From NCBI GenBank assembly GCA_046539005.1, contig JBKHHV010000001.1, positions 1-39,815 on the forward strand: 39,815 nt of DNA, in the 5' to 3' direction. The notes under the pieces are model-generated. The model had not been told where the DNA came from. It did no database searches and saw only the letters and a list, made by a program, of their open reading frames with translations. The position numbers and the translations under genes were made by a program. The DNA comes from Phycisphaerae bacterium. Lineage in GTDB: Bacteria; Planctomycetota; Phycisphaerae; SM23-33. This document shows, piece after piece, positions 129-36,684 of this stretch (within the stretch, counting starts at the first letter, position 1; every line of letters starts with the position of its first letter).

Positions 129-158
129 GTGACACGCCCCCCGAAGACTTGATACAAT
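129..158 (+). promoter_or_regulatory. Candidate sigma70-like promoter (GTGACA-N18-TACAAT) upstream of the 194..1516 CDS
   Basis: GTGACA at 129-134, an 18-nt spacer, and TACAAT at 153-158. The site lies about 36 nt upstream of the ATG at 194. Sequence pattern only. Confidence 0.3.
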
Positions 159-193
159 ACTGCGAACCGCTTTCCTTACTCACGGGTGACACC

Positions 194-1516
194 ATGAACA
201 GGACAACGATTTTCGTGCTGACGACGGTGCTGTTGGCGGGGTCTCTGACCCGGGCCGACGTCGACCTGGCACAGCCTTACCGCGACCCGCTCAGCGGGTT
301 CAGCATCCGCCCGCCCAAGGGCGCCCAGCGCAAGCTCAAGACCGGCACCGCCACGCTCGCCCAGTGGCTCCAGCGCGACGAGGATTCCGGGGCGATCGTC
401 TGGACGCTTACCGTTTCCAAGGCGGCCTACAAGGTGAAGGAAGACGAGGAGTTCAACCTTCGCGAGTACGGCAAGCAGTTGTCGAAGGAGATGATGCAGC
501 GCGACCGCTTCAAGGTCGAGAAGCTCAGCTTCGGCTCCGTCGACAAAAAGCCCGCGATCACCATGGCCGGGCAGTCGGCCGGGACGCTGAAGTTCTGGCA
601 GAAGCAGGTCTGGGTGCGTTCCAAGCCGGGGCGTTTTCTGGTGTTTACGTTGTTCGGTCCGCTCAACAAAGCCGACCGCCTTCGCTCGGTCATGGACAAG
701 GTGATGGACAACGTCACCATCACCGACCCCGAGGAGGAACTCAAACGCCGGCAGACCTATCTGCGCAACGGCAAGGTGGCGCTGCTGGGGCTGACCAGGG
801 AAGCCGTCGCCAAAGCCGCCGCCGACAAGCCTTTGTGGATGCTCATGAAGCTCAAGGGCAAGACCGTCGGCTGGATGCGCCAGAGCGAAAGCATGGACAA
901 GGAGCAGCAGTTCGAGGGGCTCAAGGTGGTGACCCACAGCTCGGCCGAGTTGCCCAAGAGCCCGGTGCGCCTCAGCAAGTCGGACATGTTCTCCTCCATC
1001 GGGCGAACCTACGAACGCTGGACCGAGTTGCTGCAGATCGGCTCGGGCAAGACGGCCGTCTCGTTCATGGAAAAGGCGTTCCGCAAGGATCGGGTGATCC
1101 TGTGCAACGCCAGCCGCAACGGCAAGGCGCTGCCGGTGCTCAAGCGCGAGGACGTGCCCGCCCAATGGTTCCTGCCCAAGGCAATAGGAATGATGCTCCC
1201 GCGATTTCTGGACCTGGACAAGCCCAGAACGTATGCTTTTGCCACGTACAACAGCCGCACCAACAAGTACGACATGCGACTGTTCGTGGTCGGAGAGACG
1301 GTCATGGTCGAGCACGGCGGGCGACGTGTCAAGGCGATCCGCTGCCAGGACCAGGCCCACTGGGACAAGGAACCCGCCACGGTCTACCTGAAGCCCGACG
1401 GGACGCTCATCCGGCTGGAGACGGCCGACGAGTTCGTGGTGGAACTCAGCGACGAGGCGACCGTCCGCAGGAAATTCCCGAAAGTCAACGACGTCATCAA
1501 GGCCCTGGACCGCTGA
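194..1516 (+). CDS. Hypothetical secreted protein (N-terminal signal peptide)
   Basis: Long ORF with high third-position GC. The internal ATG at 194 gives MNRTTIFVLTTVLLAGSLTRADV, which is signal-peptide-like. I recognise no family motif. Confidence 0.7.
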   Translation: MNRTTIFVLTTVLLAGSLTRADVDLAQPYRDPLSGFSIRPPKGAQRKLKTGTATLAQWLQRDEDSGAIVWTLTVSKAAYKVKEDEEFNLREYGKQLSKEMMQRDRFKVEKLSFGSVDKKPAITMAGQSAGTLKFWQKQVWVRSKPGRFLVFTLFGPLNKADRLRSVMDKVMDNVTITDPEEELKRRQTYLRNGKVALLGLTREAVAKAAADKPLWMLMKLKGKTVGWMRQSESMDKEQQFEGLKVVTHSSAELPKSPVRLSKSDMFSSIGRTYERWTELLQIGSGKTAVSFMEKAFRKDRVILCNASRNGKALPVLKREDVPAQWFLPKAIGMMLPRFLDLDKPRTYAFATYNSRTNKYDMRLFVVGETVMVEHGGRRVKAIRCQDQAHWDKEPATVYLKPDGTLIRLETADEFVVELSDEATVRRKFPKVNDVIKALDR

Positions 1517-11882: not shown

Positions 11883-13331
11883 TCACTCCACCGACGCGAC
11901 GTCCGGCTTGCGGGCCGCGAGCGTCTCGTCCGGGCGGGTGATGGCGGCGGTCTTCGGCATCGCCTCGAAGGCGTCGGGCTCTTCGTCGGCCAGTTTCGCC
12001 AGTTCGATCATCACCTCAATGAAGTGATCCAGCGTTTCCTTGCTCTCGGTCTCGGTCGGCTCGACCATCATCGCCTCGGGCACCGTCAGCGGGAAGTAGA
12101 CCGTGGGGGGGTGAATCCGCCGGTCGATCAGCGCCTTGGCGATGTCTTTGGCGTGCACGCCGCGCTGGGCCTGGCGGGAGGCGCTGAACACGCACTCGTG
12201 CTTGCAGACCTGTCCGAAGGGCAGTTCGTAGTAGTCCTTGAGCTTCTCCTTGACATAGTTGGCGTTGAGCACGGCGTTCTCGCTGACGCGCTCCAGGCCC
12301 TCGCGCCCGAGCATCAGCATGTAGGCGTACGCCCGCAGCACGATGCCGAAGTTCCCGTAGAACGGGGCGACGTAGCCGATGCTGTGGGGGCGGTCGTAGT
12401 CCAGCCAGTGGCTGCCGTCCTCGCGCTCCTGGACGATCGAGATCGGCAGGAACTCGACCAGCTTGTCCACCACGCCCACCGGTCCGGCGCCGGGCCCGCC
12501 CCCGCCGTGGGGGGTGGCGAAGGTCTTGTGCAGGTTCACGTGCACGATGTCGAAGCCCAGGTCGCCCGGGCGGCACCGTCCCAGGAGGGCATTGAGATTC
12601 GCCCCGTCATAGTAGTTGAGTCCGTCGACGCTGTGGATCAGGTCGCAGATCTCCTTCACGTGCGGGTTGAACAGCCCCAGCGTATTGGGGCAGGTGAGCA
12701 TCACCCCGGCCACCTCGTCGTCGAGGGCGGCCTTCATCGCTTCCAGGTCCATCACCCCGTTTTCGTCGGAGGGGATGGTGACCACCTCGTATCCGGCGAT
12801 CGCCGCCGAAGCGGGGTTGGTGCCGTGCCCGCTGTCGGGGATCAGCACGGTTTTCTTCGTGTTGCCCTTCGCGCGGTGGTAGGCCGCCATGATCATCGCG
12901 CCGGTCAGTTCGCCGTGAGCCCCGGCCAGCGGCTGCATGGTGAACTGGGCCATCCCGCAGATCTCGCTGAGCATGCGGTCCATGTGGTAGAGCACCGCCA
13001 GGGCGCCCTGGACATACTGCTCGCCGGTGGGAAGCTGCGGCAGCAGGGGGTGCAGGTCGGCGAAGCCGGGGTCGTGCCCGACGACCTCGGCCATCTTGGG
13101 ATTGTACTTCATGGTGCAGGAGCCCAGCGGGTAGAAGCCGCTGTCGACACCGAAGTTCCGCCGCGACAGTTCGGTAAAGTGGCGGACCACGTCCAGTTCG
13201 CTGAGTTCCGGCAGGTCGGCCGGCTCGTCGCGAAGCAGCGACTTGTTGATGTAGACGGTGTCGGCGACGTCGACCGGGGCGGGGCGGACACCCCGTCGGC
13301 CGGGCACGGATTTCTCGAAGATCAGGTCCAT
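11883..13331 (-). CDS. gcvPB: Glycine dehydrogenase (aminomethyl-transferring) subunit 2
   Basis: PLP-lysine region VNLHKTFATPHGGGGPGAGP. Length 482 aa. It is the last gene of the gcvT-H-PA-PB string. Confidence 0.92.
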   Translation of the reverse strand: MDLIFEKSVPGRRGVRPAPVDVADTVYINKSLLRDEPADLPELSELDVVRHFTELSRRNFGVDSGFYPLGSCTMKYNPKMAEVVGHDPGFADLHPLLPQLPTGEQYVQGALAVLYHMDRMLSEICGMAQFTMQPLAGAHGELTGAMIMAAYHRAKGNTKKTVLIPDSGHGTNPASAAIAGYEVVTIPSDENGVMDLEAMKAALDDEVAGVMLTCPNTLGLFNPHVKEICDLIHSVDGLNYYDGANLNALLGRCRPGDLGFDIVHVNLHKTFATPHGGGGPGAGPVGVVDKLVEFLPISIVQEREDGSHWLDYDRPHSIGYVAPFYGNFGIVLRAYAYMLMLGREGLERVSENAVLNANYVKEKLKDYYELPFGQVCKHECVFSASRQAQRGVHAKDIAKALIDRRIHPPTVYFPLTVPEAMMVEPTETESKETLDHFIEVMIELAKLADEEPDAFEAMPKTAAITRPDETLAARKPDVASVE

Positions 13332-13394
13332 GGTCGTCTCGTTTCTGCAGCAGCAGGGGCGGTCATGCCCTGCCCTCGCTGCCGTTTCCTTCCG

Positions 13395-14726
13395 CTAGAG
13401 GCTCACCTCGACCGCATGGGCCAGCAGGTCGATCTCGGCCTTGGTTCGCTTTTCGGTAATCGCCAGCAGCAGGGCGTTTTCCATCTCGGGGTAGTATCGC
13501 ACCAGCGGGAAGCCGGCGGAGATGTCCTGTTCCAGCAGGCGGCGGATGACCCGGTCGGCCCGGTTGGGCAGGCGCAGCACGAACTCGTTGAAGAAGTGTC
13601 GCCGGCCGAACCACATCTCGACTCCCGGGATCGCCAGCAGTCGCTCGCGTGCGTAGGAGGCCTTCTCGGCACAGTATTTCGCCAGTTCCACCAGCCCCTG
13701 CTTGCCCAGCAGGGAGAGGTAGATGACGCTGGTAAGTGCACACAACCCCTGGTTGGTGCAGATGTTGCTCATCGCCTTCTCACGCCGGATGTGCTGCTCG
13801 CGGGCCTGGAGGGTCAGTACGAAACCTTCGTTGCCGTTGGCGTCGAGGGTCTTGCCGGCGATCCGCCCGGGCATCTTGCGCATGTACTTGGTCCGCGTGG
13901 CCATGAACCCCAGGTACGGGCCGCCGAAACTCAGCGGCAGCCCCAGCGACTGCCCCTCACCGGTGACGATGTCGGCGTCCATTGCTCCCGGGGTCTTCAC
14001 CAGCCCCAGCGAGATCGGATAGCAGGAGACAATCAGCAACGCCCCGGCCTCGTGGACGATCTGCGCCAGATCGGCGAAGTCGTCCAGGCAGCCGAAGAAG
14101 TTGGGATTCTGGACCACCACGGCCGCGGTGTCATCGGAAAGGGCCTCGGCGATCGCCTGGCGGTCGGCAAGCCCGACGTTCGCCTGCGTCTCGGTCAGTT
14201 CGATGCCGAGGTTGGAGGTGTAGCTGCGGATCATCGTGCGGTAAATCGGGCTGACCGACTCGTCGACGATCACGGCGTTGCGCCGGGTGATCCGCATCGC
14301 CATCATCACCGCCTCATAGAGGGCGGTGCCGCCGTCGTACAGCGACGCGTTGGCCACCTCCATGCCCGTCAGCCGTGCGATCGCCGACTGGTACTCGTAA
14401 ATCGCCTGCAGGGTGCCCTGGCTGATCTCCGGCTGATAGGGCGTGTAGGCGGTGTAGAACTCGCTGCGCGAGACCAGCGCGTCGACCGCGGCGGGAATGA
14501 AGTGGTCGTAAAATCCACCACCCAGAAAGTTTACGAAACGCCCGGCGTTGCGATCGGCCATCGCACGCAGCGTGCGGCGGACCTCCTGCTCGCTCAGACC
14601 GGCCGGGAGATTCAGCGGGCTGCAGCGCAGCTCCGGCGGAATGTCGGCGAACAGATCCTCGGCCGAAAGCCCGATCTCCTCGAGCATGGCCTGTCGTTGC
14701 TCGTCGGTATTGGCGATAAATGGCAT
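13395..14726 (-). CDS. gcvPA: Glycine dehydrogenase (aminomethyl-transferring) subunit 1
   Basis: N-terminus MPFIANTDEQRQAMLEEIGL and TAYTPYQPEISQGTLQAIYEYQ. I chose the start at ATG 14726. The track ORF extends to 14819. Confidence 0.9.
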   Translation of the reverse strand: MPFIANTDEQRQAMLEEIGLSAEDLFADIPPELRCSPLNLPAGLSEQEVRRTLRAMADRNAGRFVNFLGGGFYDHFIPAAVDALVSRSEFYTAYTPYQPEISQGTLQAIYEYQSAIARLTGMEVANASLYDGGTALYEAVMMAMRITRRNAVIVDESVSPIYRTMIRSYTSNLGIELTETQANVGLADRQAIAEALSDDTAAVVVQNPNFFGCLDDFADLAQIVHEAGALLIVSCYPISLGLVKTPGAMDADIVTGEGQSLGLPLSFGGPYLGFMATRTKYMRKMPGRIAGKTLDANGNEGFVLTLQAREQHIRREKAMSNICTNQGLCALTSVIYLSLLGKQGLVELAKYCAEKASYARERLLAIPGVEMWFGRRHFFNEFVLRLPNRADRVIRRLLEQDISAGFPLVRYYPEMENALLLAITEKRTKAEIDLLAHAVEVSL

Positions 14727-14858
14727 GGAAGACTCCGGGGTGTCGATAAGCGGCTGCCCGACCACTTGGCGGGGCGAACCGGCTAACCGTTCAATTCGGC
14801 GCGGCGGCGTGTCGGTCACTGCCTGCGGATTGTCGGCGGGCAGGCGCCGCCTCGGGTG

Positions 14859-15245
14859 TCAGTCGTCCTGGGCGGCGAGGAACTTCTCGTAATCCGTCGG
14901 CTTCATGAGCTTTTCCAGGTCGGCGGGGCTGGTAAGGGTCAGCCGGTAGATCCAGCCGTCAGTGTACGGGTCGGAGTTCACCAGCCCGGGATCGTCTTCG
15001 AGGCTGTCGTTGACCTCGCTGATCTCTCCGCCGGCCGGGGCGTATACGCTGGCGGCCGCCTTGCAGCTCTCCAGCGACAGCGCCTCCTCGCCCTGCCGGA
15101 CCTTCTTGCCCTTGTCGGGCAATTCCACGAAGGTCAGGTCGCCCAGTTGCTCCTGGGCGTGCTCGGTGATGCCCACCGTGCCGGTCTGGCCGTCGACGCG
15201 AATCCACTCGTGCTGTTCGGTATACAACAGATCATCCGGTACCAT
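14859..15245 (-). CDS. gcvH: Glycine cleavage system H protein
   Basis: 128 aa. YTEQHEWIRV and the lipoyl-lysine motif LESCKAAASVYAP. The canonical motif is ESVKA; here Cys precedes the Lys. Confidence 0.92.
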   Translation of the reverse strand: MVPDDLLYTEQHEWIRVDGQTGTVGITEHAQEQLGDLTFVELPDKGKKVRQGEEALSLESCKAAASVYAPAGGEISEVNDSLEDDPGLVNSDPYTDGWIYRLTLTSPADLEKLMKPTDYEKFLAAQDD

Positions 15246-15293
15246 TGCTTCCGGTCCTTTCCTGATATCAACGTCCAGCAGGACGTCTGCGAA

Positions 15294-16388
15294 TCACAGT
15301 TTCACTTTCTTCCGGCAGGTTCCGCTGGTGTAGAGGGGCTTCTCGACGAGGGTCGCCTCCATCTTCGCCCGCCCGGTGTCGATGACGATCGACCTGCCGG
15401 CCGCCGAAACGTCCGCCGACACGTATCCGATGCCGATGGAGGTCTGAAGCGACGGGCTGAAAGCCCCGCTGGTCACCTCGCCGGCCACTCGGCCGTCGCA
15501 GAGAATGGTATTGCCGTGGTTCGCCCGGCGGCGCGTGTCGGCCTGGAAGGCGACCAGCCGCCGTGACACGCCGGCGTCTCTTGCCCGCTCCAGTGCCTCA
15601 GCGCCGATGAAATCGTGCGTACGCGTTACGAAGAACCCTAGCTCCGCCTCCAGCGGGTTGGTGTTCTGGTCGATGTCCTCGCCGTAGAGCGGGTAGCCCA
15701 TCTCCAGGCGGAGGCTGTCGCGAGCGCCCAGGCCGGCGGGCTTCACGCCCTCCTGCCCCAGCAGCGTCTGGAACAGTCCCCCCAACTCGGCGGCGGGGTA
15801 GAAGATTTCGTACCCAAGCTCACCGGTGTAGCCGGTGCGGGAGAAGATGCACTCCACCCCGCCCACCTTGGCCCGCCGGGCACGGAAGTAGCCCAGTTCG
15901 TTCAGGTCGGCGTCGGTATGCGGCGCCAGCACCTCGGCCGACCGGGGTCCCTGCACGTCCAGCTTGCCGAAGGACGTCAGCGGCTGCACGTCGATGGACT
16001 CCGGCAGGTGCGTGCGGACCCAGCGGTGGTCCTGCTCGGCCGGGCCGGCGTTGACCACCAGGAAGAACTCTTCCTCGCCCAGGCGTGCGACGATGGTGTC
16101 ATCCAGAATGCCGCCCTGTTCGTTGAGCAGGAACCCGTACTTGCACTGCCCGACCTCCATGGCGGCACAGTCCTGCACGAGCACCTCCCCGAGCCGGTCG
16201 GCTGCGTCGGGCCCGGTAATCAGCAGTTGCCCCATGTGGCAGGTATCGAACAGGCTGACCTGCGAGCGGGTGTGGTTGTGCTCGGCAAGGATGCCCTCGT
16301 ATTGCACCGGCAGCAGCCAACCGTGGAAGTCCACGATGCGGGCTCCGAGTTTCTGATGCATGTCATGCAGGCACGTTTTGTTCGGCAC
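15294..16388 (-). CDS. gcvT: Glycine cleavage system aminomethyltransferase T
   Basis: LHDMHQKLGARIVDFHGWLLPVQY and FDTCHMGQLLITG. I propose a GTG start at 16388, preceded by GGGGAGAG 7 nt upstream. The track ORF extends to 16478, so the start is uncertain. Confidence 0.85.
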   Translation of the reverse strand: MPNKTCLHDMHQKLGARIVDFHGWLLPVQYEGILAEHNHTRSQVSLFDTCHMGQLLITGPDAADRLGEVLVQDCAAMEVGQCKYGFLLNEQGGILDDTIVARLGEEEFFLVVNAGPAEQDHRWVRTHLPESIDVQPLTSFGKLDVQGPRSAEVLAPHTDADLNELGYFRARRAKVGGVECIFSRTGYTGELGYEIFYPAAELGGLFQTLLGQEGVKPAGLGARDSLRLEMGYPLYGEDIDQNTNPLEAELGFFVTRTHDFIGAEALERARDAGVSRRLVAFQADTRRRANHGNTILCDGRVAGEVTSGAFSPSLQTSIGIGYVSADVSAAGRSIVIDTGRAKMEATLVEKPLYTSGTCRKKVKL

Positions 16389-16504
16389 GATGGCACTCTC
16401 CCCGGGTCGTCGGCCCTCTGCACTCCGGCGGCCGGTCGGCAAAGCGACCATGATGCGGGGGAACCCGCCGCGGTTCAACAGATTTCCGCCCTATCGCCTG
16501 GCGC

Positions 16505-16527
16505 CACGGGCGTCTCCGACGCCCGTG
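16505..16527. other. Perfect 10-bp-stem hairpin in the gcvT/hydB intergenic region, related to the one at 9308
   Basis: CACGGGCGTC-TCC-GACGCCCGTG. It has the same architecture as 9308-9330, with compensatory TA->CG stem changes. Confidence 0.5.
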
Positions 16528-17070
16528 CTGTCTCAATGTCGGTGGAATGCTTCGGTAGGGCGGTGCAGCTTTGCTGCCCGCCGCAGAGCCGTTCGTCATC
16601 TTGCCTTCCTTGCGTCGTCTGCAGACTGAGGCCCGGAGGGCCGGCAGAGGATAGCCGGGGGTGGAGCGAAGCGGAACCCCCGGAACAGGCGGCCCTCCTT
16701 CAGAAGGTCGCGCCGCGCCACGGGTCGTAGGTGAGGAGACGTGACAATGCCGGGGCAGGACGATCTGCCGGTGCGGCGGGCGAAGGGTGTAATGGACCAA
16801 GCCATGACGATGACGGCGCTTGTCGTGCACTTCGCGCTGCTTTCTCTGGATCGAGCCCGACAGCGCTGAACGCCAAGGCGACCCGGTGGCGTTTCGCGAA
16901 ATCTCCCATTTCGGTTTGGTGGTTGGCGGGGAGGGGGGCTAAGATACTGCAACCCGGCCGGCGGACAGGAAAGCTCCCCGCGCCGGGGTTTGGTTTTTCA
17001 GTCCCGTTGCGGGCGGCGCCACCCCGGCGACCCTATCCGCCCGCGGGGCAGACCCCTTGCCAGGACAGAC

Positions 17071-19251
17071 ATGAGCAAGATCACCGAAGCGTACCAGAAA
17101 CTGTTCTTCGAGGCCGAGCAGGAGCGACGCCAGAAGAACGAGACCGGGAAGATCCGCATCCAGGTCGGGTCGGCCACCTGCGAAAACGCGGCCGGCGCCG
17201 AGGACATCTTCCAGGAGTTCCAGAAGCACGTGGCCGCCTCCGGGCGGGACGACATTGTCCTGCGCCGCACCGGCTGTACTGGCCGTTGCTCGTGCGAGCC
17301 GATTGTCGGCATTCTCAAGCCCGGCGAGATGCCCGTGAAATATCAGCGGGTCGACCGCGAACTCGTACACAAGATTTTCACCTCCCACATCGTGCACGAC
17401 GAGCCGGTCTTCGACCAGATGCTCGACTCCCACGCCGAGAGGCTCAACACCTACGAACTGCTGATGTGCTCGGGCTCCCGCTGCGGGCGGGGCTTCACCA
17501 AGGGGCTCGACGCTCTGTTCAAGGAGAAGCTCCTGGAGGCGGGGGTGGACCTCTCCCGCATCAACGTGCTGCGGGCCAACTGCTTCGGGCTCTGCCAGGA
17601 CGTCGATCACGGCAACGCCACGCACGTGCTGATCCGCCCGAGCATGGTGATGTATCGCATCGAAACGCCCGAGGACGTCGAGGAGATCGTCGAAACCCAC
17701 GTCAAGAAGGGGCAGTTCGTGGAGCATCTCCGCGTGGCCGACCGCCCCATGAGCCAGCGGTTCTTCAACCTCTACGGCGACGTGGCGTTCTTCAACCAGC
17801 AAAGCCGCATCGCCCTGCGGAACAGCGGCATCATCGACCCCGAGAACATCCACGAGTACATCCACTACAACGGCTTCGAGGCGCTCGCCCAGGTGCTGGA
17901 CCGCGGCGATCAGAAGTGGATCATCGACGAAGTCACCGCCTCCAAGGTCCGCGGTCGCGGGGGCGGAGGGTTCCCCACCGGGCTGAAGTGGGCCAACGCC
18001 GCCGAGCAGGACGCCGACGAGAAGTTCGTGATCTGCAACGCCGACGAGGGCGACCCCGGGGCGTTCATGGACCGCAGCATGCTCGAGGGCGACCCGTTCA
18101 GCATCATCGAGGGCATGATCATCGGCGGGTACGCGGTGGGTGCCACTCGCGGGTTCCTGTATATCCGCGCCGAGTACCCCATGGCCATCCGCCGCGTAGA
18201 GAACGCCATCGTCCAGGCACGCCGGAAAGGCCTGCTGGGCGAGAACATCCTGGATTCGGGCTTCGATTTCGACCTGGAGATCCGTCTCGGGGCCGGGGCG
18301 TTCGTCTGCGGCGAGGAGACCTCGCTGATCCATTCGATCGAGGGCAAGCGCGGTCAGCCGCGCATCCGCCCCCCGTACCCGACCCAGAGCGGGCTGTGGG
18401 GTAAGCCCACGGTCATCAACAATGTGGAGACGTGGGCGAACATCCCGGTGCTGCTGTACTACGGGGCCGAGTGGTTCTCGCAGATCGGCACCGAGAAGTC
18501 CGGCGGCACGAAGGTGTTCGCCCTGGCCGGCAAGGTGGAGCACACCGGGCTGGTGGAGGTGCCCATGGGCACCACGCTGCGGGAGATCGTCTTCGACATC
18601 GGCGGCGGCGTGCCGGGCGGCAAGAAGCTCAAGGCGATCCAGACCGGTGGACCGGCCGGCGGATGCATCCCCGCCAAGTGGCTGGACACCCCCGTCGACT
18701 TCGACACGCTCACCGAGGCCGGCTCGATTATGGGCTCCGGCGGCATGATCGTGATGGACGAGAGCGACTGCATGGTCGACATCGCCAAGTTCTTCATTAC
18801 CTTCAGCCAGGCCGAGAGCTGCGGCAAGTGCACCCCCTGCCGCGAGGGAACCACGCGGATGCTGGAGATTCTCGACAAGATCACCCACGGGCTGGCGACC
18901 CCTGAAGACCTGGTGAAGCTCGACCGGCTCGCCCGGCTGGTGCGTCAGGCGTCGCTGTGCGGGCTGGGACGGGCCGCCCCCAACCCGGTGCTCAGCACGA
19001 TGGAGCACTTCCGCGACGAGTACGAGGCCCACGTGGTCGACAAGACCTGCCCCGCCCACAAGTGCACGGCGCTGGTGCGGTTCGAGATCGACCCCGACAA
19101 GTGCGTCGGGTGCACCGCCTGTGCCCGCAACTGCCCCGTCTCGTGCATCCACGGCAAGCCCAAGCAACTTCACGAGATCGACCAGTCCCGCTGCATCAAA
19201 TGCGGCAAGTGCTTCCAGGTCTGCCGGTTCGACGCGGTCAACAAGCTCTAG
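17071..19251 (+). CDS. hydB: NuoF-like NAD(P)H-binding flavoprotein subunit of a multimeric [FeFe]-hydrogenase (HydB/HndC-like)
   Basis: Two N-terminal thioredoxin-like [2Fe-2S] modules (TGCTGRCSCEP, and CSGSRC...CFGLC). FMN/NADH site GRGGGGFPTG. N3-type cluster ESCGKCTPCREG. C-terminal 2x[4Fe-4S] region CVGCTACARNCP...CIKCGKCFQVC. Start taken at ATG 17071. Confidence 0.85.
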   Translation: MSKITEAYQKLFFEAEQERRQKNETGKIRIQVGSATCENAAGAEDIFQEFQKHVAASGRDDIVLRRTGCTGRCSCEPIVGILKPGEMPVKYQRVDRELVHKIFTSHIVHDEPVFDQMLDSHAERLNTYELLMCSGSRCGRGFTKGLDALFKEKLLEAGVDLSRINVLRANCFGLCQDVDHGNATHVLIRPSMVMYRIETPEDVEEIVETHVKKGQFVEHLRVADRPMSQRFFNLYGDVAFFNQQSRIALRNSGIIDPENIHEYIHYNGFEALAQVLDRGDQKWIIDEVTASKVRGRGGGGFPTGLKWANAAEQDADEKFVICNADEGDPGAFMDRSMLEGDPFSIIEGMIIGGYAVGATRGFLYIRAEYPMAIRRVENAIVQARRKGLLGENILDSGFDFDLEIRLGAGAFVCGEETSLIHSIEGKRGQPRIRPPYPTQSGLWGKPTVINNVETWANIPVLLYYGAEWFSQIGTEKSGGTKVFALAGKVEHTGLVEVPMGTTLREIVFDIGGGVPGGKKLKAIQTGGPAGGCIPAKWLDTPVDFDTLTEAGSIMGSGGMIVMDESDCMVDIAKFFITFSQAESCGKCTPCREGTTRMLEILDKITHGLATPEDLVKLDRLARLVRQASLCGLGRAAPNPVLSTMEHFRDEYEAHVVDKTCPAHKCTALVRFEIDPDKCVGCTACARNCPVSCIHGKPKQLHEIDQSRCIKCGKCFQVCRFDAVNKL

Positions 19252-19320: not shown

Positions 19321-21081
19321 ATGGCTGAGAAGAAACAGATCAACCTGACCATCGACGGCGTGGAGATCAGCGTGCCCGAGGGCACCACGATCATGGAGGC
19401 GGCCGAGACGCTCGGGGTCCACATCCCGCGTCTGTGCTACCATCCCGACCTGAGCCTGGCAGGCTCCTGCCGCGTCTGCATTGTGGACGTCAAGGGCATG
19501 GGCTTCTTCATGGCTTCCTGCAGCGTGAACGTGTGGGAAGGCATGGAAGTACAGACCAACTCGCCGGAGATCCGCGAGGCGCGGCGCGATATCATCGAGC
19601 TGCTGCTGGACAACCACACCAAGGACTGCCAGACCTGCGAACGCGACGGACACTGCGAACTGCAGAACCTCGCCTACTCCCACGGCGTCCGCGAACGACT
19701 CTTCGAGGGCAAACGCGAAGAGTTCGTCATCGAGACCTCCAGCCGTTCGGTGATCCGCGACCCCAACAAGTGCGTTCTCTGCGGCCGATGCGTTCGCGTG
19801 TGCGACGAGATCCAGGGCGTCACGAACCTCTCCCAGCAGGGACGCGGGTTCGGCACCTTCGTCTCGCCCGCCCACGAGGCCGAGATGGACAACTCCGTCT
19901 GCATCCAGTGCGGACAGTGCATCAACGTCTGCCCCACCGCCGCGTTCCTGGAGCAGAAGCACACCGAGGACGTCTGGAATGCCCTGGCCGATCCGGAGAT
20001 GCACGTGGTCGCCCAGACGGCGCCGTCCATCCGGGCGGCCGTGGGCGAAGGGTTCGGGATCGACCCCGGTACCCCCGAGACCGGGCGGATGATCACCGCC
20101 CTGCGAAGGCTGGGGTTCGATGCGGTGTTCGACACCAACTTCGGCGCCGACCTGACCATCGTGGAAGAGTCGGCCGAGCTTCTGCGACGGCTGGAAGGGC
20201 AGGGCCCGCTGCCGATGTTCACCAGTTGCTCTCCCGGTTGGATCAACTTCCTGGAGAAGTTCTACCCGGCCCTGATTCCCAACGCATCGAGTTGCAAGAG
20301 CCCGATGTCGATGACCTCCACGCTCATCAAGACTTTCTACGCCGAGCAGACGGGGATCGACCCGGCGAAGATCTACGTCGTCGGCGTCATGCCGTGCGTG
20401 GCCAAGAAGTTCGAGATCCACCGCCCCGAGCACGCCATGGAAAACGGCGCGCCCTACACCGACGCGGTGCTGACCACCCGCGAGCTGATCTTCATGATCA
20501 AGTGCTATGGGATCGACTTCGTCTCCCTCCCCGACGGCGAGTTCGACCGCCCGCTGGGGCTTTCGACCGGGGCGGCCGACATCTTCGGAACCACCGGCGG
20601 CGTCATGGAAGCCTCGCTGCGGACGGCCTCGGAGAAGGTCACCGGCAAGCGCGACCAGCTCGAGTTTACCGAGGTCCGCGCGGTGGAAGGCCTGCGGGAA
20701 GCCGACGTGAAACTCGGCGACAAGACGCTGCACGTGGCCGTCGCCAACGGGCTCAACAACGCCAAGACCGTGCTGGACCAGGTGGTGGACGGCAGCAAGG
20801 AGTTCCACATCATCGAGGTGATGGCCTGCCCGGGCGGGTGCATCGGCGGGGGCGGGCAGCCCTATCCGCCCAAGGGCTTCGACGTGCTGGATCCGGAGTT
20901 GCTTCGCCTGCGGGCGTCGGCACTGTACAGCATCGACGGCGGCAAGCAGCTTCGCCGCTCGCACGAGAACCCCGCGATTACCGAAATCTACAGCCGTTTC
21001 CTCGGCGAAATCGGCGGGCCCAAGGCCCACAAGCTTCTGCACACCGAGTACCACCCACGAACCCCCCGAGGGATCCGATGA
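19321..21081 (+). CDS. hydA: [FeFe]-hydrogenase catalytic subunit (M3-type, HydA/HndD-like)
   Basis: N-terminal [2Fe-2S] region (CYHPDLSLAGSCRVCIV), a His-ligated cluster region (HTKDCQTCERDGHCELQ), and 2x[4Fe-4S] (CVLCGRCVRVC, CIQCGQCINVCP). H-cluster motifs are L1 FTSCSPGW, L2 MPCVAKKFE and L3 EVMACPGGCIGGGGQP. Confidence 0.9.
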   Translation: MAEKKQINLTIDGVEISVPEGTTIMEAAETLGVHIPRLCYHPDLSLAGSCRVCIVDVKGMGFFMASCSVNVWEGMEVQTNSPEIREARRDIIELLLDNHTKDCQTCERDGHCELQNLAYSHGVRERLFEGKREEFVIETSSRSVIRDPNKCVLCGRCVRVCDEIQGVTNLSQQGRGFGTFVSPAHEAEMDNSVCIQCGQCINVCPTAAFLEQKHTEDVWNALADPEMHVVAQTAPSIRAAVGEGFGIDPGTPETGRMITALRRLGFDAVFDTNFGADLTIVEESAELLRRLEGQGPLPMFTSCSPGWINFLEKFYPALIPNASSCKSPMSMTSTLIKTFYAEQTGIDPAKIYVVGVMPCVAKKFEIHRPEHAMENGAPYTDAVLTTRELIFMIKCYGIDFVSLPDGEFDRPLGLSTGAADIFGTTGGVMEASLRTASEKVTGKRDQLEFTEVRAVEGLREADVKLGDKTLHVAVANGLNNAKTVLDQVVDGSKEFHIIEVMACPGGCIGGGGQPYPPKGFDVLDPELLRLRASALYSIDGGKQLRRSHENPAITEIYSRFLGEIGGPKAHKLLHTEYHPRTPRGIR

Positions 21082-21614
21082 AACCCCAGAGCCCGACCGA
21101 CAACCGACCCGACGTTATGGCCGCCGCCAAGGCCGAACTGCCCGAGGATATCGTCAAGTTCATCGAGGAATGCTGCTGGAAAGAGCATTCCGAAAGCCAG
21201 CTCATCAGCGTGCTGCACAAGGTGCAGGCGCACTTCGGCTACCTCGCGCCCGAGAAACTCGACGCCGTCGCCCAGCTTCTGCAGGTGCCGGCCGCCACGG
21301 TCAGCGGCGTGGCGACGTTCTATCACTTCTTCCGGCTGACCCAGCGCGGGCGGTTCATCATCAGCGTGTGCATGGGCACCGCCTGCTACGTGAAGGGTGC
21401 CCAGGAAGTGGTCGAGAAGTTCCAGGACGAACTGGGCATTGCCTTCGGTGAGACCACCACCGACGGGATGTTCTCTCTGGAAGAATCGCGCTGCGTGGGA
21501 ACCTGCGGGCTGGCCCCGGTGGTGATGATCAACGAACAGGTCCACGGGAAGGTGACCCCCGACCAGGTGCCCGTGCTGATCGAGGACTACCGCCACCGCC
21601 CCGCGGCCGAATAG
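21078..21614 (+). CDS. hydC: NuoE-like thioredoxin-fold [2Fe-2S] subunit of the hydrogenase (HydC/HndA-like)
   Basis: FYHFFRL and CMGTACYVKG...CVGTCGLAP (C-x4-C...C-x3-C). The ATG overlaps the hydA stop (ATGA). Confidence 0.85.
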   Translation: MKPQSPTDNRPDVMAAAKAELPEDIVKFIEECCWKEHSESQLISVLHKVQAHFGYLAPEKLDAVAQLLQVPAATVSGVATFYHFFRLTQRGRFIISVCMGTACYVKGAQEVVEKFQDELGIAFGETTTDGMFSLEESRCVGTCGLAPVVMINEQVHGKVTPDQVPVLIEDYRHRPAAE

Positions 21615-29530: not shown

Positions 29531-32002
29531 ATGACCAAGCACGCCTACGGCACCGTCTGGGTGCCCCTCACCGTTGCGCTGACCCTGATGCTTGTCTGCG
29601 CCCTCGTTCCGTCCGCGTCGGCCGCCCGGCAGGATTTCCGCGCCGCCCGCGCCTACAAGGGTTTCTCCGACGAGGCCGTCGAGGAAGCCATCGGCAAGGG
29701 GGTTCGTTGGCTTTGGGAGCACCAGAACGACGACGGCAGTTTCAGCGAGGTCGCCCCTCGCCGCAATCGGGGCGGCATCCGGCTGACCGGGCATTACGCG
29801 GTCGGCAGGACCGCCATCGCCATGTACGCGCTGCTGGAAAGCGGAGCCAGCGTGCAGGACGAGCGGGTCAAGAAGACCCTCAAGTACCTCGAAGAAACCT
29901 GGACCGACCGCACCTACGACATCGCCCTGCGGGCCAACGTGTGGCTGCTGGCGATGCGCGGAGACGACTCCTACCGCAAGCATCTGCAGAAGGACGTGGA
30001 TATCCTCGTCAAGAGCGATCTCAGCGGCAGCTACACCTACCAGTCCCGCTACGCCCTGAAGGACGCCCCGCGCAAGGTCAAGGAACGCTACCAACGCATG
30101 ATCGAGGCCCGCCGCAAACTCCGCAAGCAGAACCCCAACCGTCGGCGACGCTTCCGCCGGGGCGACAACTCCAACGCCCAGTACGGCGTGCTGGGTGTGT
30201 GGGCCGGCGTCCGCGGAAACGTGGAGGTGCCCAGCAAGTACTGGAAGGCCGTCGAAGAGCACTGGTCGGACTGCCAGTCCAAGGACGGCGGCTGGGGGTA
30301 TTCCAGCTACGGCCGCCAGAAGCCCTACCCGGCAATGACCGCCGCCGGGGTGGCGACGCTGTTCGTCTGTGCCGACAACCTGTACTACAACAAGTTCCTT
30401 CGCTGTGATACCGGGCTGGAGATGACCCGCATCAACAACGGGCTCAAGTGGATCGAGAAACATTTCGACGAGTCGATGAAGCCGCCCAAGAAAGGACGCG
30501 GCGGGGTCATGGTCGGAAACGTTCACGGACTCAACAACTACTACCTCTACGGGATCGAGCGGGTCGGGCTCGCCAGCGGATACAAGTATTTCGGCAAGAG
30601 CGACTGGTACAAGGCCGGCGCCAGCTACCTGCTCCGCATGCAGAACAAGAAGGGCTTCTGGCCGGGCGGCTGGGCCGACGGACAGAACCTCGGGGCGACC
30701 GCCTACGCCGTGCTGTTTCTTCTGCGCGGCCGCCAGCCGGTACTCATGAACAAGCTGGAGTACGACTGCGACTGGAACAACCGCCCCCGCGCCGTCGCCA
30801 ACGCCTGTCACTGGATGACCCGCAAGTTCGAGACCGAGATCAACTGGCAGATCATCAACCTCAAGGTGCCGGTTTCGGAATGGCATGACGCGCCGGTGCT
30901 GCTGCTGACCGGCTCGCGCGAGCCGAAGTTCTCCGACAAACAGCTCGACAAGCTCCGCCAGTTCGTCCACGAGGGCGGCACGCTGTATTCCATCACCGAA
31001 TGCAACGGCGAAGGCTTCAGCGAGGGCATCCGCAAGGTCTACCGCAAGCTGTTCCCGGACTACGAACTGACGCCCTGCCCCGACGACCATCCCATCCAGA
31101 ACACCCAGTTCGACCTCCGCGGACGGATCAGGTTCCACGAGATCCACAACGGCGTCCGCCCGCTGGTGGTGCATTCCGACCAGGACCTGCCCTTCGACTG
31201 GCAGCAGTACCGCCACCGGACGAAGACCCATATTTTCGAGGCGGCCGCCAACGTGCCTTTCTACATCTGCGGGAAAGACGGCTTCCGCCCGCGAGGCACC
31301 AGCCCCTGGCCGAAAGAGCAGAAATTCCGCCCGGTTGCGACGGTGAAGATCGCCCGCCTCAAGCACAACGCCCACTACGACCCCGAGCCGCTGGCGTGGG
31401 CTCGCATGGCACGGCTGATGGGCAACCGCCTGCAGGTCAAGCTGGACGTCTCCGAACCCATGGCGATGGGCCAGTTGGGCGAGTCGGAGGCGAAGGTGGC
31501 GGTCCTGAGCGGAACCGGCCGCCTCAAGCTGACCCTTGCCCAGAAGACCGCCCTGCAGAAGTTCCTCTTGGGCGGAGGGACGCTCATCGTCGAGGCGTGC
31601 GGCGGAAACGAAGCGTTCGCCGACTCGGCCGAGAAGGCCATCGCCGGGATGATGCGGGTGCCCTCGCTGATGGACCTGCCCGCCACGCATCCCCTCTACC
31701 GCCGTGAGAAAATGGAGATCGACCAGGTGCGCTACCGACGGGGCAAGGGCAAAGCCATCCGCAAGGACAACCCCGACCTGAAGGTCGCCTACGCCGGCCG
31801 CCGGGCGGCCGTGATCTTCTCCGACAAGGACATGACGGCCGGTCTGCTGGGCATCACCCACGACAACATCGACGGGTACATGCCCGAGGACGCCGTACGC
31901 CTGATGCGGAACATCGTGCTGTACGCCGCCGGATCCGAGCTTGATTCGCCCGACGAAAAGGCCCCCGCCGCCGAGGGAAAGATATTCGGCGACGAATCGT
32001 AA
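29531..32002 (+). CDS. Exported protein with prenyltransferase/squalene-cyclase-like repeats plus two DUF4159-like modules (paralog A)
   Basis: Signal peptide VPLTVALTLMLVCALVPSASAA. Repeats HQNDDGSF, QSKDGGWGY and MQNKKGFWPGGW. Module 1 begins KLEYDCDWNNRPRAVANACHW...WHDAPVLLLTGS...FVHEGGTLY. Module 2 begins ARLKHNAHYDPEPLAW...FLLGGGTLIVEACGG...IFSDKDMTAGLLG...RNIVLYA. Confidence 0.85.
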   Translation: MTKHAYGTVWVPLTVALTLMLVCALVPSASAARQDFRAARAYKGFSDEAVEEAIGKGVRWLWEHQNDDGSFSEVAPRRNRGGIRLTGHYAVGRTAIAMYALLESGASVQDERVKKTLKYLEETWTDRTYDIALRANVWLLAMRGDDSYRKHLQKDVDILVKSDLSGSYTYQSRYALKDAPRKVKERYQRMIEARRKLRKQNPNRRRRFRRGDNSNAQYGVLGVWAGVRGNVEVPSKYWKAVEEHWSDCQSKDGGWGYSSYGRQKPYPAMTAAGVATLFVCADNLYYNKFLRCDTGLEMTRINNGLKWIEKHFDESMKPPKKGRGGVMVGNVHGLNNYYLYGIERVGLASGYKYFGKSDWYKAGASYLLRMQNKKGFWPGGWADGQNLGATAYAVLFLLRGRQPVLMNKLEYDCDWNNRPRAVANACHWMTRKFETEINWQIINLKVPVSEWHDAPVLLLTGSREPKFSDKQLDKLRQFVHEGGTLYSITECNGEGFSEGIRKVYRKLFPDYELTPCPDDHPIQNTQFDLRGRIRFHEIHNGVRPLVVHSDQDLPFDWQQYRHRTKTHIFEAAANVPFYICGKDGFRPRGTSPWPKEQKFRPVATVKIARLKHNAHYDPEPLAWARMARLMGNRLQVKLDVSEPMAMGQLGESEAKVAVLSGTGRLKLTLAQKTALQKFLLGGGTLIVEACGGNEAFADSAEKAIAGMMRVPSLMDLPATHPLYRREKMEIDQVRYRRGKGKAIRKDNPDLKVAYAGRRAAVIFSDKDMTAGLLGITHDNIDGYMPEDAVRLMRNIVLYAAGSELDSPDEKAPAAEGKIFGDES

Positions 32003-32042
32003 TGTGTTCACAATCGCAGCACCCTTTGAGGAAACGCAACCC

Positions 32043-34361
32043 ATGAGCAATCGCAGGAAACCCACCCCGGCATGGACGATTGTGGCTTTGATGGCGGTGT
32101 CGCTGAGCGCGGCCGCGGCAGGAAAGCCCGGCATGCTGCCCGGGAAGAACACCCAAACCCGCGACCGTAAGGACTTCACCGACGCCGACGTCCAGAAGGC
32201 GATCGATCGGGGCGTGAGCTACCTTCTGAAAACCCAACAGGATGACGGCAGTTGGGCCAAGAAGAACACCAACAACTACGCCTACCCCGTCGGACCGACC
32301 GCGATCTGCACCTATGCGCTGCTGGAGGCGGGGGTGAAGCCCACCCACCCCAAGGTGAAGAAGGCGCTGGCGTTCCTCTCCAAGACCGAGACCGAGAACA
32401 CCTACTGCTACGCCTTCCGCGCCAGCGCCTACGCCGCGGCGATGAGGTACGACAGGAACACCTTCCTCCGTCCACTGATGAAAGACGTGTCGGTCATCTG
32501 GCACTCGTTCCACAAAGACACCGGCGGCTACTCCTACTTCTGCAAGGGACGACCCGCACGCGACAAGGAACTGGCGAGCTTCGCCGGCGGCCCGGACCAG
32601 TCCAACTCCCAGTACGCGCTGCTGGGCGTCTGGGCGGGTTCCCGCTGGGGCGTGGAGGTGCCCTCGGGCTTCTGGAAGGTCAGCATGGAATACTGGCTCA
32701 GGACCCAGAATGCCGACGGCGGCTGGGGCTACAGCCCCAAGACGCGGAAGGAGTCCTACATGGCGATGACCCTGGCGGGCCTGGCGAGCCTGTACGTCTG
32801 CGTGGACAACCTCTACGCCAGCCGTTTCCTCGCCTGCCGCGGCAACGCCGAGATTCCCCAGATCTCCAGGGGCCTGGACTGGGTGGAGAAGAACTTCAAG
32901 GAGATGCTCGAACTCAAGCAGTGGTTCTACTACACGCTGTACGGGCTGGAACGCGTCGCCCTGGCGACCGGGTACAAGTACTTCGCCAAACACGACTGGT
33001 ACAAGCTGGGCACCTCCGAACTGCTCTCCCGCCAGGACCGCGACGGCTCGTGGTCCGGCGGTAAATACGGCGGGGGACCCACCGCCCAGACCTCCTATGC
33101 CCTGCTGTTCCTCGTCCGCGGCAGAAGGCCGGTGCTGTTCAACAAACTCGAATTCGAGGGCGACTGGAACAACCGCCCGCGCGACATGGCCAACGTCACC
33201 CGCTGGATGCAGGGGCGTTTCGAGACCGACGTCGCCTGGCAGATCATCAACGCCGACCTGCCCGTTACCGAATGGCACGACGCGCCGATCCTCTACATCT
33301 CCGGCTCCAAAGCCCCCAGATTTACCGACGAGCAGATCGCGCGGCTGCGGACGTTCGTCCTTCAGGGCGGGACGATCTTCAGTTGCACCGAATGTAGCGG
33401 CAAGGGCTTCCGCGAGGGGATCCGCCAGGTCTACGCCAAGATGTTCACCAAGTACGAACTGACCCCCTGCGGGCCCGACCACCCGGTCTACTCGTCCCAG
33501 TACGACCTGAAGGGGCGACCCAAACTGCATGAGATCAGCAACGGCGTTCGGCCGCTGGTGTTCCACACCGACCACGACCTGCCCCGGGCGTGGCAACTCT
33601 TCCGTACCCGCTCGCGAAGCAGCGAGTTCGAGGCGGCCGTCAATATCGCGATGTACGTCAACGGGCGAGGCGAGTTCCGCCGCCGCGGTACCAGTCCCTG
33701 GCCGACAGCCGAGCGATTCGAGCCCGTCGCCACCGTTGCCGTCGCACGGCTGAAGCACAACGCCCAATGGAACCCCGAGCCGCTGGCGTACGAACGCTTC
33801 GCCCGCATGCTGGGCAATCGCTGCAAGGTCAAGCTGAATGTCACCGAGCCGATGGACATCGACGCACTTGCCGACTCCGACGCGAAGGTCGCCGTGATGA
33901 CCGGGCTGGGCACGCTGAAGCTCAGCGAGAAGGAGTCGGCCGCCCTGAAGGCCTTCGTGGCCGGCGGGGGAATGGTCATCGTCGACGCAGCCGGCGGGAA
34001 TGAAACCTTCGGCGACTCGGCCCGCAAACAGCTCTCCGAGACGTTCGGCGAACCGTTCGTGAACCTGCTGGGCAGCGGGGCCGTGCTGGGTCGCAAGGGC
34101 ATGGCCATCACCGACGTCCGCACCCGCCGCATCGGCCGGGCGACCGTCCAGCAGGGCAGCCCGCGACTCAAGACGATCCTGGTCGACTCCCGCCCGGGGG
34201 TGATCTTCTCCGACCGGGACATCACCGCCGGCCTGGTGGGATACCCCTTCGACCACATCGACGGTTACATGCCCGAAGACGCCTACCGCCTGATGCGCAA
34301 CTGCATCCTTACCGCCGCCGGGGTAAGCCCCGACAAGACGGCCGAGCCCGGGCAGGACTGA
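32043..34361 (+). CDS. Exported protein with prenyltransferase/squalene-cyclase-like repeats plus two DUF4159-like modules (paralog B)
   Basis: Start at ATG 32043 (MSNRRKPTPAWTIVALMAVSLSAAAAG), with GAGGAAA 8 nt upstream, 41 nt after the paralog A stop. It is colinear with A throughout: TQQDDGSW, QNADGGWGY, KLEFEGDWNNRPRDMANVTRW, ARLKHNAQWNPEPLAY, IFSDRDITAGLVG. Confidence 0.85.
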   Translation: MSNRRKPTPAWTIVALMAVSLSAAAAGKPGMLPGKNTQTRDRKDFTDADVQKAIDRGVSYLLKTQQDDGSWAKKNTNNYAYPVGPTAICTYALLEAGVKPTHPKVKKALAFLSKTETENTYCYAFRASAYAAAMRYDRNTFLRPLMKDVSVIWHSFHKDTGGYSYFCKGRPARDKELASFAGGPDQSNSQYALLGVWAGSRWGVEVPSGFWKVSMEYWLRTQNADGGWGYSPKTRKESYMAMTLAGLASLYVCVDNLYASRFLACRGNAEIPQISRGLDWVEKNFKEMLELKQWFYYTLYGLERVALATGYKYFAKHDWYKLGTSELLSRQDRDGSWSGGKYGGGPTAQTSYALLFLVRGRRPVLFNKLEFEGDWNNRPRDMANVTRWMQGRFETDVAWQIINADLPVTEWHDAPILYISGSKAPRFTDEQIARLRTFVLQGGTIFSCTECSGKGFREGIRQVYAKMFTKYELTPCGPDHPVYSSQYDLKGRPKLHEISNGVRPLVFHTDHDLPRAWQLFRTRSRSSEFEAAVNIAMYVNGRGEFRRRGTSPWPTAERFEPVATVAVARLKHNAQWNPEPLAYERFARMLGNRCKVKLNVTEPMDIDALADSDAKVAVMTGLGTLKLSEKESAALKAFVAGGGMVIVDAAGGNETFGDSARKQLSETFGEPFVNLLGSGAVLGRKGMAITDVRTRRIGRATVQQGSPRLKTILVDSRPGVIFSDRDITAGLVGYPFDHIDGYMPEDAYRLMRNCILTAAGVSPDKTAEPGQD

Positions 34362-35418: not shown

Positions 35419-36684
35419 ATGGACAGATTTCTGATCCAGGGCGGCACCCGCCTGCGAGGCGAGGTGCGCATTGGCGGGGCGAAGAACGCAGCCCTTCCCA
35501 TCATGGCAGCGGCACTGTTGGCCGACGGGCCTTCGGTTATCCGCGACGTGCCGGACCTGGCCGATATCCGTGCCATGGCCGACCTGCTGTGCGACCTGGG
35601 CGCCCCCACCACCCGCGATTCCGACGGCACCCTGCGTATCGCCGTGCAGGACGAATCCAGCTCGCACGCCGAATACGACCGCGTCCGCAAGATGCGCGCC
35701 AGCATCTGCGTGCTGGGTCCGCTGCTGGCCAAGCGCCGCTCGGCGAGGGTTGCGATGCCCGGCGGGTGTGCCATCGGCTCCCGCCCGGTCGACCTGCACC
35801 TTCGCGGGCTGCGTGCCCTGGGGGCCGAGATCGAACTCGACGGCGGCGATATCGTCGCATCCGCACGAAAACTGCACGGGGCAAGCGTCTTCCTGGGCGG
35901 GCCCTTCGGCTCGACCGTGCTGGGCACCGCCAACGTCATGATGGCCGCCTGCCTCGCCGACGGACGCACCGTGATCGAGTCGGCCGCGTGCGAGCCGGAA
36001 ATCGCCGACCTTGCCGATTACCTCACGAAGATGGGCGCCCGCATCGAGGGGGCAGGCACCCCCCGCGTGGTCATCGACGGGGTCGACCGCCTCCGCGGCG
36101 TCGAACACACCGTCATCGCCGACCGCATCGAGGCCGGCACCTTCATGATCGCCGCGGCGCTGACCAACGGCGAAGTGAAAGTGCGGAACGTGCACACCGA
36201 GCACATGCTGGCAGTCGTCGACCGGATGGGCGACATCGGCGTGGGCATCGAGCACGAGGACGGCGGGGTGGTGGTCTCCAGTGCCCGCCGGCTGGAACCG
36301 GTGGACATCACCACCTATCCGTACCCCGGTTTTCCCACCGACCTGCAGGCCCAGATCATGACGCTGCTGTGCCTTGCCGACGGCAACAGCGCGATTACCG
36401 AAAAGATATTCCCCGACCGTTTCATGCACGTGGCGGAACTGCTGCGGATGGGCGCCAATATCCGCAAGGAAGGTCCCACCGCGATCGTCACCGGCGTCAA
36501 GAAGCTCATCGGCGCGCCGGTGATGGCCAGCGACCTGCGAGCCTCGGCGGCGCTGGTGCTGGCGGGGCTGGTGGCACGGGGTACCACCACCGTCCAGCGG
36601 GTCTACCACATCGACCGCGGCTACGACAGCATCGAGACCAAGCTCCGCGGGCTGGGCGCGAATATCAAGCGCGTCAGCGAGTAG
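35419..36684 (+). CDS. murA: UDP-N-acetylglucosamine 1-carboxyvinyltransferase
   Basis: MDRFLIQGGTRLRGEVRIGGAKNAALPIMAAALLA and the active-site loop KMRASICVLGPLLA...PGGCAIGSRPVDLHL, with the Cys present. 421 aa. Confidence 0.92.
   Translation: MDRFLIQGGTRLRGEVRIGGAKNAALPIMAAALLADGPSVIRDVPDLADIRAMADLLCDLGAPTTRDSDGTLRIAVQDESSSHAEYDRVRKMRASICVLGPLLAKRRSARVAMPGGCAIGSRPVDLHLRGLRALGAEIELDGGDIVASARKLHGASVFLGGPFGSTVLGTANVMMAACLADGRTVIESAACEPEIADLADYLTKMGARIEGAGTPRVVIDGVDRLRGVEHTVIADRIEAGTFMIAAALTNGEVKVRNVHTEHMLAVVDRMGDIGVGIEHEDGGVVVSSARRLEPVDITTYPYPGFPTDLQAQIMTLLCLADGNSAITEKIFPDRFMHVAELLRMGANIRKEGPTAIVTGVKKLIGAPVMASDLRASAALVLAGLVARGTTTVQRVYHIDRGYDSIETKLRGLGANIKRVSE

Follow-up and report, generated by a model that had tools for sequence, protein, structure and literature searches.

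A serine-type H-cluster L1 motif (TSCSPGW) in a predicted HydABC-type [FeFe]-hydrogenase of a Phycisphaerae bacterium

The hydB-hydA-hydC genes and their products

The stretch of Phycisphaerae (Planctomycetota) DNA analysed here, 39.8 kb in length and referred to as the window, carries on its forward strand three consecutive genes in the order hydB-hydA-hydC: hydB (17074..19251, with ATG at 17074) encodes a NuoF-like flavoprotein subunit of 725 aa, hydA (19321..21081) the catalytic [FeFe]-hydrogenase subunit of 586 aa, and hydC (21078..21614) a NuoE-like subunit of 178 aa with a thioredoxin-like [2Fe-2S] domain. The mechanical list of open reading frames begins hydB at a TTG, position 16990. 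The ATG of hydC overlaps the stop codon of hydA (ATGA); from this 4-nt overlap, and from the length of 179 aa in a sister locus, we infer the hydC start at 21078. The gene order is kept in a sister genome with 85% identity, in a Logan assembly and in the cultured Thermostilla marina, and a HydB orthologue of 726-727 aa is present at the same position in the sister loci. The flanking regions are composed of unrelated housekeeping genes, i.e. gcvT/H/PA/PB upstream on the opposite strand, and MutY, HIT and dGTPase-like genes downstream. Genes for the maturases HydE/F/G were found neither in the 39.8-kb window nor, in T. marina, at a distance of up to 10 kb. When the entire window was scanned against Rfam, no family reached the gathering threshold; in particular, a glycine riboswitch was not found between gcvT and hydB.

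The HydA protein is composed of a NuoG-like N-terminus with [2Fe-2S] and [4Fe-4S] domains (Pfam families PF13510, PF10588 and Fer4), an H-domain that covers the whole profile of PF02906 (E 1.6e-91), and a C-terminal small-subunit-like tail (PF02256, E 7.6e-22). Its score of 820.7 bits against the NCBIfam model NF040763 (FeFe_hydrog_A6; profile positions 1-571 of 571) passes the curated cutoff of 765 for the family named "NADH-dependent [FeFe] hydrogenase, group A6", the very name under which NCBI already annotates the identical protein from a Phycisphaerae MAG; the score against TIGR02512 (503 bits) is likewise above the cutoff (405.95). The top PDB match in the HMMER search was HydA1 of T. 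kivui (8a6t_A, E 3.5e-181), and HydA1 of A. woodii (7q4v_A, E 1.5e-174) and CpI (E about 1e-143) were also matched. The Pfam, NCBIfam and PDB matches thus bear out the [FeFe]-hydrogenase identity that a first-pass annotation had proposed from the DNA letters.

In HydB, the FMN/NADH domain and the NuoF [4Fe-4S] region are combined with one or more N-terminal thioredoxin-like [2Fe-2S] domains and a C-terminal 2x[4Fe-4S] ferredoxin domain (PF01512, PF10589 and Fer4 in Pfam; nuoF_fam in NCBIfam); the corresponding PDB matches were A. woodii HydB (7q4v_B, 4.6e-219), 8a6t_B (1.4e-208) and 7p5h_B (5.9e-191). HydC matched PF01257 (E 1.4e-50) as well as 8a6t_C (2.2e-40) and 7q4v_C (1.9e-38). The NF040763 score of HydA and the adjoining NuoF-like and NuoE-like subunits are those of a HydABC ("group A6") enzyme.

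The L1 motif, its register and its serine codon

The codons at positions 20221-20241 of the forward strand (ACC AGT TGC TCT CCC GGT TGG) are in frame with the 586-aa reading frame of hydA and encode the L1 motif TSCSPGW (T301, S302, C303, S304, P305, G306, W307), which is also the motif of A. woodii HydA1. In CpI, Cys299 is established as the proton relay, and Cys300, Cys355, Cys499 and Cys503 as the ligands of the cubane. From query residue 211 to past residue 370, the HMMER alignments of HydA with T. kivui HydA1, A. woodii HydA1 and CpI contained no gaps; Ser304 (codon TCT, 20230..20232) therefore lies opposite CpI Cys300, T. kivui Cys299 and A. woodii Ser301, i.e. at the L1 ligand site of the [4Fe-4S]H subcluster, and Cys303 (codon TGC, 20227..20229) opposite CpI Cys299, the relay beside the bridging amine. 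As the alignment is ungapped and the identity to the solved structures amounts to about 54%, the register of L1 is fixed. The ligand assignment based on CpI is in agreement with that of Katsyv et al. 2023 (PMC10021017), in which Cys299 of T. kivui is a ligand that is replaced by Ser301 in A. woodii.

The remaining H-cluster motifs, compared with the reference patterns MPCxxKxxE (L2) and ExMxCxxGCxxGxGQ (L3), were canonical and invariant in the relatives: L2 (MPCVAKKFE, 20389..20415, forward strand) starts at residue 357 with Met357 (CpI Met353) and includes the ligand Cys359 (CpI Cys355) and Lys362 (CpI Lys358), and L3 (EVMACPGGCIGGGGQP, 20815..20862, forward strand) starts, with the sequence EVMACPGGCIGGGG, at residue 499 and includes Cys503 (CpI Cys499) and Cys507 (CpI Cys503), the bridging cysteine to the di-iron site. 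Cys303 was invariant in 16 relatives. The proton pathway is intact, its residues C303, E283, S323, E286 and R290 aligning without gaps to C299, E279, S319, E282 and R286 of CpI; K362, M357 and M501 are likewise conserved. In consequence, the first-pass annotation had read the motif and its frame correctly, had rightly assigned the relay function to the first cysteine and the cubane ligand position to the second residue, and had rightly described L2 and L3 as canonical; the shifted register that it had named as a possible objection was not present in the alignments with the solved structures.

With respect to the hydrogenase groups, HydA displays the H-domain, the L2 and L3 motifs and the proton-transfer pathway of group A, and departs from the canonical TSCCPxW. 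This departure leaves the group A membership intact, since serine at this position is documented in the family (about 20% of sequences, and A. woodii HydA1). An assignment to group B or group C (HydS) was considered and rejected: the relay cysteine is kept, L1 of HydA lacks the third adjacent cysteine of the group B motif TSCCCP, the score against TIGR04105 (B1) was 187 bits and thus under the cutoff of 450, and the Pfam search of HydA revealed no PAS or sensory domain.

Since TCT differs from the cysteine codon TGT by one base only, and occurs just once among the 31 serine codons of hydA, the serine might be attributed to a sequencing or assembly error, as the first-pass annotation had cautioned. 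However, serine was present at this site in all 120 of the closest 90%-identity cluster representatives (117 with TSCSPGW, 3 with TSCSSGW), which are 73-85% identical to HydA, mostly from Planctomycetota, and derived from NCBI, JGI, ENA and Logan assemblies; none of these relatives contained the cysteine that the same annotation had named as the outcome speaking against its reading. The sister protein with 85% identity is encoded in two assemblies, an NCBI MAG and one obtained independently from Logan, both with TCG for the serine, and T. marina also uses TCG, a codon that is two base changes away from any cysteine codon. Furthermore, the 21 cysteines of hydA are all encoded by TGC and none by TGT, and all four TCN codons occur among the at least 120 matches in species genomes described below. 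The probability that the true codon is TGT is virtually nil; the error explanation is effectively refuted.

Frequency and spread of the serine form

An exhaustive HMMER search of 1.84 billion representatives at 50% identity yielded 2,961 proteins at E<=1e-30. In the best 150 of these 2,961 (155 H-domains), 124 copies had Cys at the ligand position and 29 had Ser, with Thr and Ala occurring once each, which corresponds to a serine share of 19%; about 25 of the 29 serine-type sequences retained the relay cysteine. This share is close to the published one: according to Kertess et al. 2017 (PMC5855289), who cite Winkler, Esselborn & Happe 2013 for the figure, serine is present at this position in about 20% of the analysed putative hydrogenase sequences. 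The rarity of the variant that was implied by the first-pass annotation is therefore mistaken.

The species genomes of GTDB were scanned for PM.TSCSPGW, with the serine encoded by TCN codons only, and gave at least 120 matches. All 120 matches listed translate to TSCSPGW, with TCA in 39, TCT in 38, TCG in 27 and TCC in 16 of them; L2 followed downstream in 117 of the 120 (in the other three, the locus ends before this motif would be reached), and both L3 cysteines were present in every locus of sufficient length. The hosts among the matches listed belong to Bacillota, Bacteroidota, Planctomycetota, Verrucomicrobiota, Spirochaetota, Elusimicrobiota, "Deltaproteobacteria", Caldisericota, Fermentibacteria and others. 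A NuoF-like gene was found in 93 of the 120 TSCSPGW loci listed, and in 10 of 10 where at least 3 kb were available on both sides; in this sample, which is biased by the search pattern, the serine form thus appears typical of HydABC-type enzymes.

In a crude neighbour-joining tree, built from BLOSUM distances and lacking support values, the serine and cysteine forms were interleaved; about 15 parsimony changes were required, a count of transitions to be taken as indicative only. The serine-type enzyme of A. woodii and the cysteine-type enzyme of T. kivui were both placed in the neighbourhood of the window protein. A single serine clade or a single origin of the serine form was rejected on account of the interleaving. 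A compensating residue was sought by covariation analysis of 13 serine-type and 79 cysteine-type H-domains, a small sample uncorrected for phylogeny, and no convincing candidate was found: the best column reached a mutual information of 0.24 bits versus 0.59 bits for the Ser/Cys column itself.

The serine also occurs in proteins that have lost further catalytic residues. Within the same 155 H-domains, some homologues with serine at the site lacked the relay cysteine or L2/L3 residues (SSSSPAW, TSYSPGW, TSFSPAW), and Di Rienzi et al. 2013 (PMC3787301), the sole relevant result of a literature search on "TSCSP" (the rest being mostly acronyms), documented TSCSPGW in hydrogenase paralogues of Melainabacteria that have additionally lost an L3 cysteine. 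By analogy to these proteins, HydA of the window might be regarded as a degenerate, non-catalytic or sensory (HydS-like) paralogue that has lost H2 production and uptake. This is extremely improbable: HydA has retained L2, L3, the relay cysteine and the complete proton pathway and contains no PAS or sensory domain, the protein scores above the curated NCBIfam cutoff of the catalytic family, hydA is translationally coupled to the genes for HydB and HydC, and the 39.8-kb window contains no second HydA.

Predicted H-cluster arrangement and comparison with known systems

The window operon would encode a HydABC-type, NADH- and ferredoxin-dependent, bifurcating or confurcating [FeFe]-hydrogenase, which very probably contains an H-cluster ligated by Ser304, with Cys303 as relay, in a complex coupled to the NuoF- and NuoE-like subunits. 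In the proposed arrangement, Cys359, Cys503 and Cys507 (the latter bridging to the di-iron site) would supply three of the ligands of the [4Fe-4S] cubane, the O-gamma of Ser304 would serve as fourth ligand in place of a cysteine S-gamma, and Cys303 would still pass protons to the bridging amine as the final relay. The window and its relatives themselves contribute the motif sequence and its register, the conservation of the serine, the integrity of L2, L3 and the proton pathway, and the operon; the occupation of the ligand position by serine and the normal spectroscopy and activity are taken from the literature on a homologue of ~52% identity, from which we infer the properties of the window enzyme.

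This homologue is the HydABC complex of A. woodii, the structure of which was solved together with that of T. kivui (7Q4V, 7Q4W and 8A5E with a best map of 3.4 Å, and 8A6T, respectively; Katsyv et al. 2023, PMC10021017). In the A. woodii model, Ser301 ligates the [4Fe-4S] part of the H-cluster; since a resolution of 3.4 Å cannot resolve an Fe-O(Ser) bond, the term "ligand" denotes a modelled assignment in this case. The A. woodii enzyme revealed the normal FTIR states (Hox, Hred, HoxH, Hhyd and Hox-CO) and activities similar to those of the cysteine-bearing T. kivui enzyme (PMC10021017). Given the corresponding arrangement, HydA of the window is expected to be matured and to turn over H2 normally.

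As the map of A. woodii is too coarse to settle the ligand formally, a register shift might alternatively be envisaged, in which Cys303 ligates the cubane and the relay function is lost or passed to Ser304 or a water molecule, with a slow or strongly biased enzyme as the result. We consider this very unlikely. The normal FTIR states of the A. woodii enzyme, which has the same motif, and its activity on the level of the cysteine-type T. kivui enzyme are hard to reconcile with the loss of the relay thiol, and Katsyv et al. modelled Ser301 at the ligand position (PMC10021017). Moreover, the remaining proton pathway is strictly conserved in HydA, which implies that it is still in use, and about 25 of the 29 serine-type sequences among the best 150 of 2,961 have retained the relay cysteine. 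The first-pass annotation had left the choice between a serine that ligates the cubane and a remaining cysteine that shifts to ligation at the expense of the relay: its first option agrees with the cryo-EM model and the spectroscopy of A. woodii (PMC10021017), and the loss of the relay is unlikely because the relay cysteine and the whole proton pathway are conserved. Its further expectation that catalysis or bias would be changed in either case runs counter to A. woodii HydABC, in which the same TSCSPGW is combined with normal FTIR states and T. kivui-like activity.

The TSCSPGW motif is thus real and correctly read, but it is a natural variant that is documented and widespread, and of which one example has been solved structurally and characterised by spectroscopy: reviews, mutagenesis studies and a cryo-EM structure combined with spectroscopic data have already covered the replacement of the cysteine ligand by serine. 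Judged by its sequence, with a serine that aligns to A. woodii Ser301 and CpI Cys300 and a relay cysteine that is kept as in the A. woodii HydA1-type subgroup, the window enzyme is a Phycisphaerae member of the known serine-ligated HydABC hydrogenases. Because the variant is common and has already been described, including a structurally solved active enzyme, the finding as such is ordinary; for annotation, it teaches that TSCSPGW is no defect when [FeFe]-hydrogenases are called functional.

When serine ligates a [4Fe-4S] cluster, the reduction potential tends to fall by tens of mV, so that a subtle tuning effect is conceivable. The effect of an engineered serine was documented for C. reinhardtii HydA1 (CrHydA1): in the variants C115S/D/A, the [4Fe-4S] cluster was largely lost, the di-iron site was not taken up and the activity was below 1 umol H2/min/mg, a loss in the C115 mutants that Kertess et al. 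2017 call "particularly surprising" (PMC5855289). The residue numbers of this work refer to the mature protein, C115 being C170 of the precursor and C300 of CpI (PMC5855289), as verified by the spacing 55/192/4 and the neighbouring C114. The active "C170S" variant of the same work was considered as support for a functional serine and rejected, as C170 in the mature numbering is the L2 cysteine (PMC5855289). Since the engineered serine inactivates CrHydA1 while natural serine enzymes work, serine ligation appears to be context-dependent. This is a puzzle of the field rather than of the present locus: natural scaffolds tolerate the serine and CrHydA1 does not, and it may be asked whether the cubane is tuned to suit bifurcation. 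In NuoF-linked bifurcating hydrogenases, selection could repeatedly have favoured the serine as a means to tune the [4Fe-4S]H potential or the robustness of the cluster, enabled by the scaffold, with a permissive feature that would be absent from the algal enzyme; we regard this reading as speculative and rather unlikely. If true, it would explain the death of CrHydA1 C115S versus the roughly one fifth of natural enzymes that contain serine, and the Planctomycetota clade with its fixed serine (120 of 120) would be a clean natural system for finding the determinant. Irrespective of its outcome, a uniformly serine-type clade including the cultured T. marina is possible material for the question of serine tolerance and cluster potential.

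The window protein is itself a member of this Planctomycetota "group A6" clade (T. marina, Pirellulales, Thermoguttaceae and Phycisphaerae MAGs; 73-85% identity), in which the serine is present in all members and the order hydB-hydA-hydC is shared. Among the characterised systems, A. woodii HydA1 resembles HydA in the identical TSCSPGW with Ser301 at the position of Ser304, the canonical L2 and L3, the domain architecture, the NuoF-like HydB and NuoE-like HydC partners and an H-domain identity of ~52%. In contrast, A. woodii is an acetogen of the Bacillota and not a planctomycete, the genes of the window are arranged as hydB-hydA-hydC, and the window HydB is extended by ~125 residues at the N-terminus. 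The bifurcating HydABC enzymes of T. kivui (HydA1, 8A6T) and Thermotoga maritima (HydA, 7P5H) share the same subunits and cofactor-binding motifs, but have the canonical cysteine as L1 ligand, the motif of T. kivui being TSCCPSW. HydA shares with CpI and CrHydA1 the H-domain motifs, the proton pathway and all but one of the four cubane ligands, whereas these two enzymes possess a cysteine at the position of CpI Cys300 and are monomeric, ferredoxin-dependent and devoid of NuoF and NuoE partners.

Residues of the L1 and L3 motifs

In the HydA L1 motif TSCSPGW, the residue between Pro and Trp (motif position +2) is Gly306 (20236-20238, hydA). Among the 155 H-domains of the broad sample, counted without correction for phylogeny, this intervening residue was glycine in 22 of the 25 Ser-type motifs with the relay Cys (Ser-type and Cys-type denote the residue at the cubane-ligand position of L1), but in only about 41 of the 111 Cys-type motifs, in which alanine was the commonest residue. 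In the L3 motif, the residues between the two cluster cysteines differed in some of the TSCSPGW hydrogenases among the matches listed in the scan of GTDB species genomes: CPGGC was replaced by CPNGC, CRGGC, CPSGC, CSGGC or CTGGC (loci L005, L009, L021, L029, L033, L045 and L053), with both cysteines being retained.

A 50%-identity cluster representative from outside the window, P0121, comprised 4122 aa with seven tandem H-domain copies (score 1823.7 bits, 7 matched stretches); its L1 motifs read TSCCASW in six copies and TSCCAGW in one. Either a giant polyprotein of several hydrogenases or an artefact of assembly or gene calling could account for this protein.

Genes surrounding the hyd locus

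A complete glycine-cleavage cluster (gcvT, gcvH, gcvPA and gcvPB; 11883-16478, minus strand) and hydB are divergently transcribed. The intergenic region of about 600 bp that separates them (16479-17073) revealed neither a glycine riboswitch nor any other family in the Rfam scan. In the sister genome, a Mur ligase-like gene instead of gcv is present upstream of hydB; the gcv-hydB pairing is therefore not conserved. Elsewhere in the window, two adjoining large paralogous ORFs of 823 and 806 aa (29531-34361, plus strand) both contained DUF4159 and weak squalene-hopene-cyclase or TED-like repeats; the long high-GC3 ORFs at 149-1516 (plus strand) and 36674-38416 (minus strand) had no Pfam matches.

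N-terminal segment of HydB

According to the PDB alignments, which began at query residue 128 (7q4v_B, 7t2r_B) or 121 (7p5h_B), HydB possesses an extra N-terminal segment (residues 1-127; 17074-17460, plus strand). The segment includes four cysteines (GSATC...TGCTGRCSC) and weakly matched the thioredoxin-like [2Fe-2S] ferredoxin family of Pfam (PF01257, E 6.9e-4) as well as, in two stretches and likewise weakly, NCBIfam fdxn_Azotob; it might carry a further [2Fe-2S] cluster. In comparison, the N-terminus of the A. woodii HydB is about 125 residues shorter, whereas the HydB orthologues of Planctomycetota (726-727 aa) likewise extend about 125 residues beyond the A. woodii protein.
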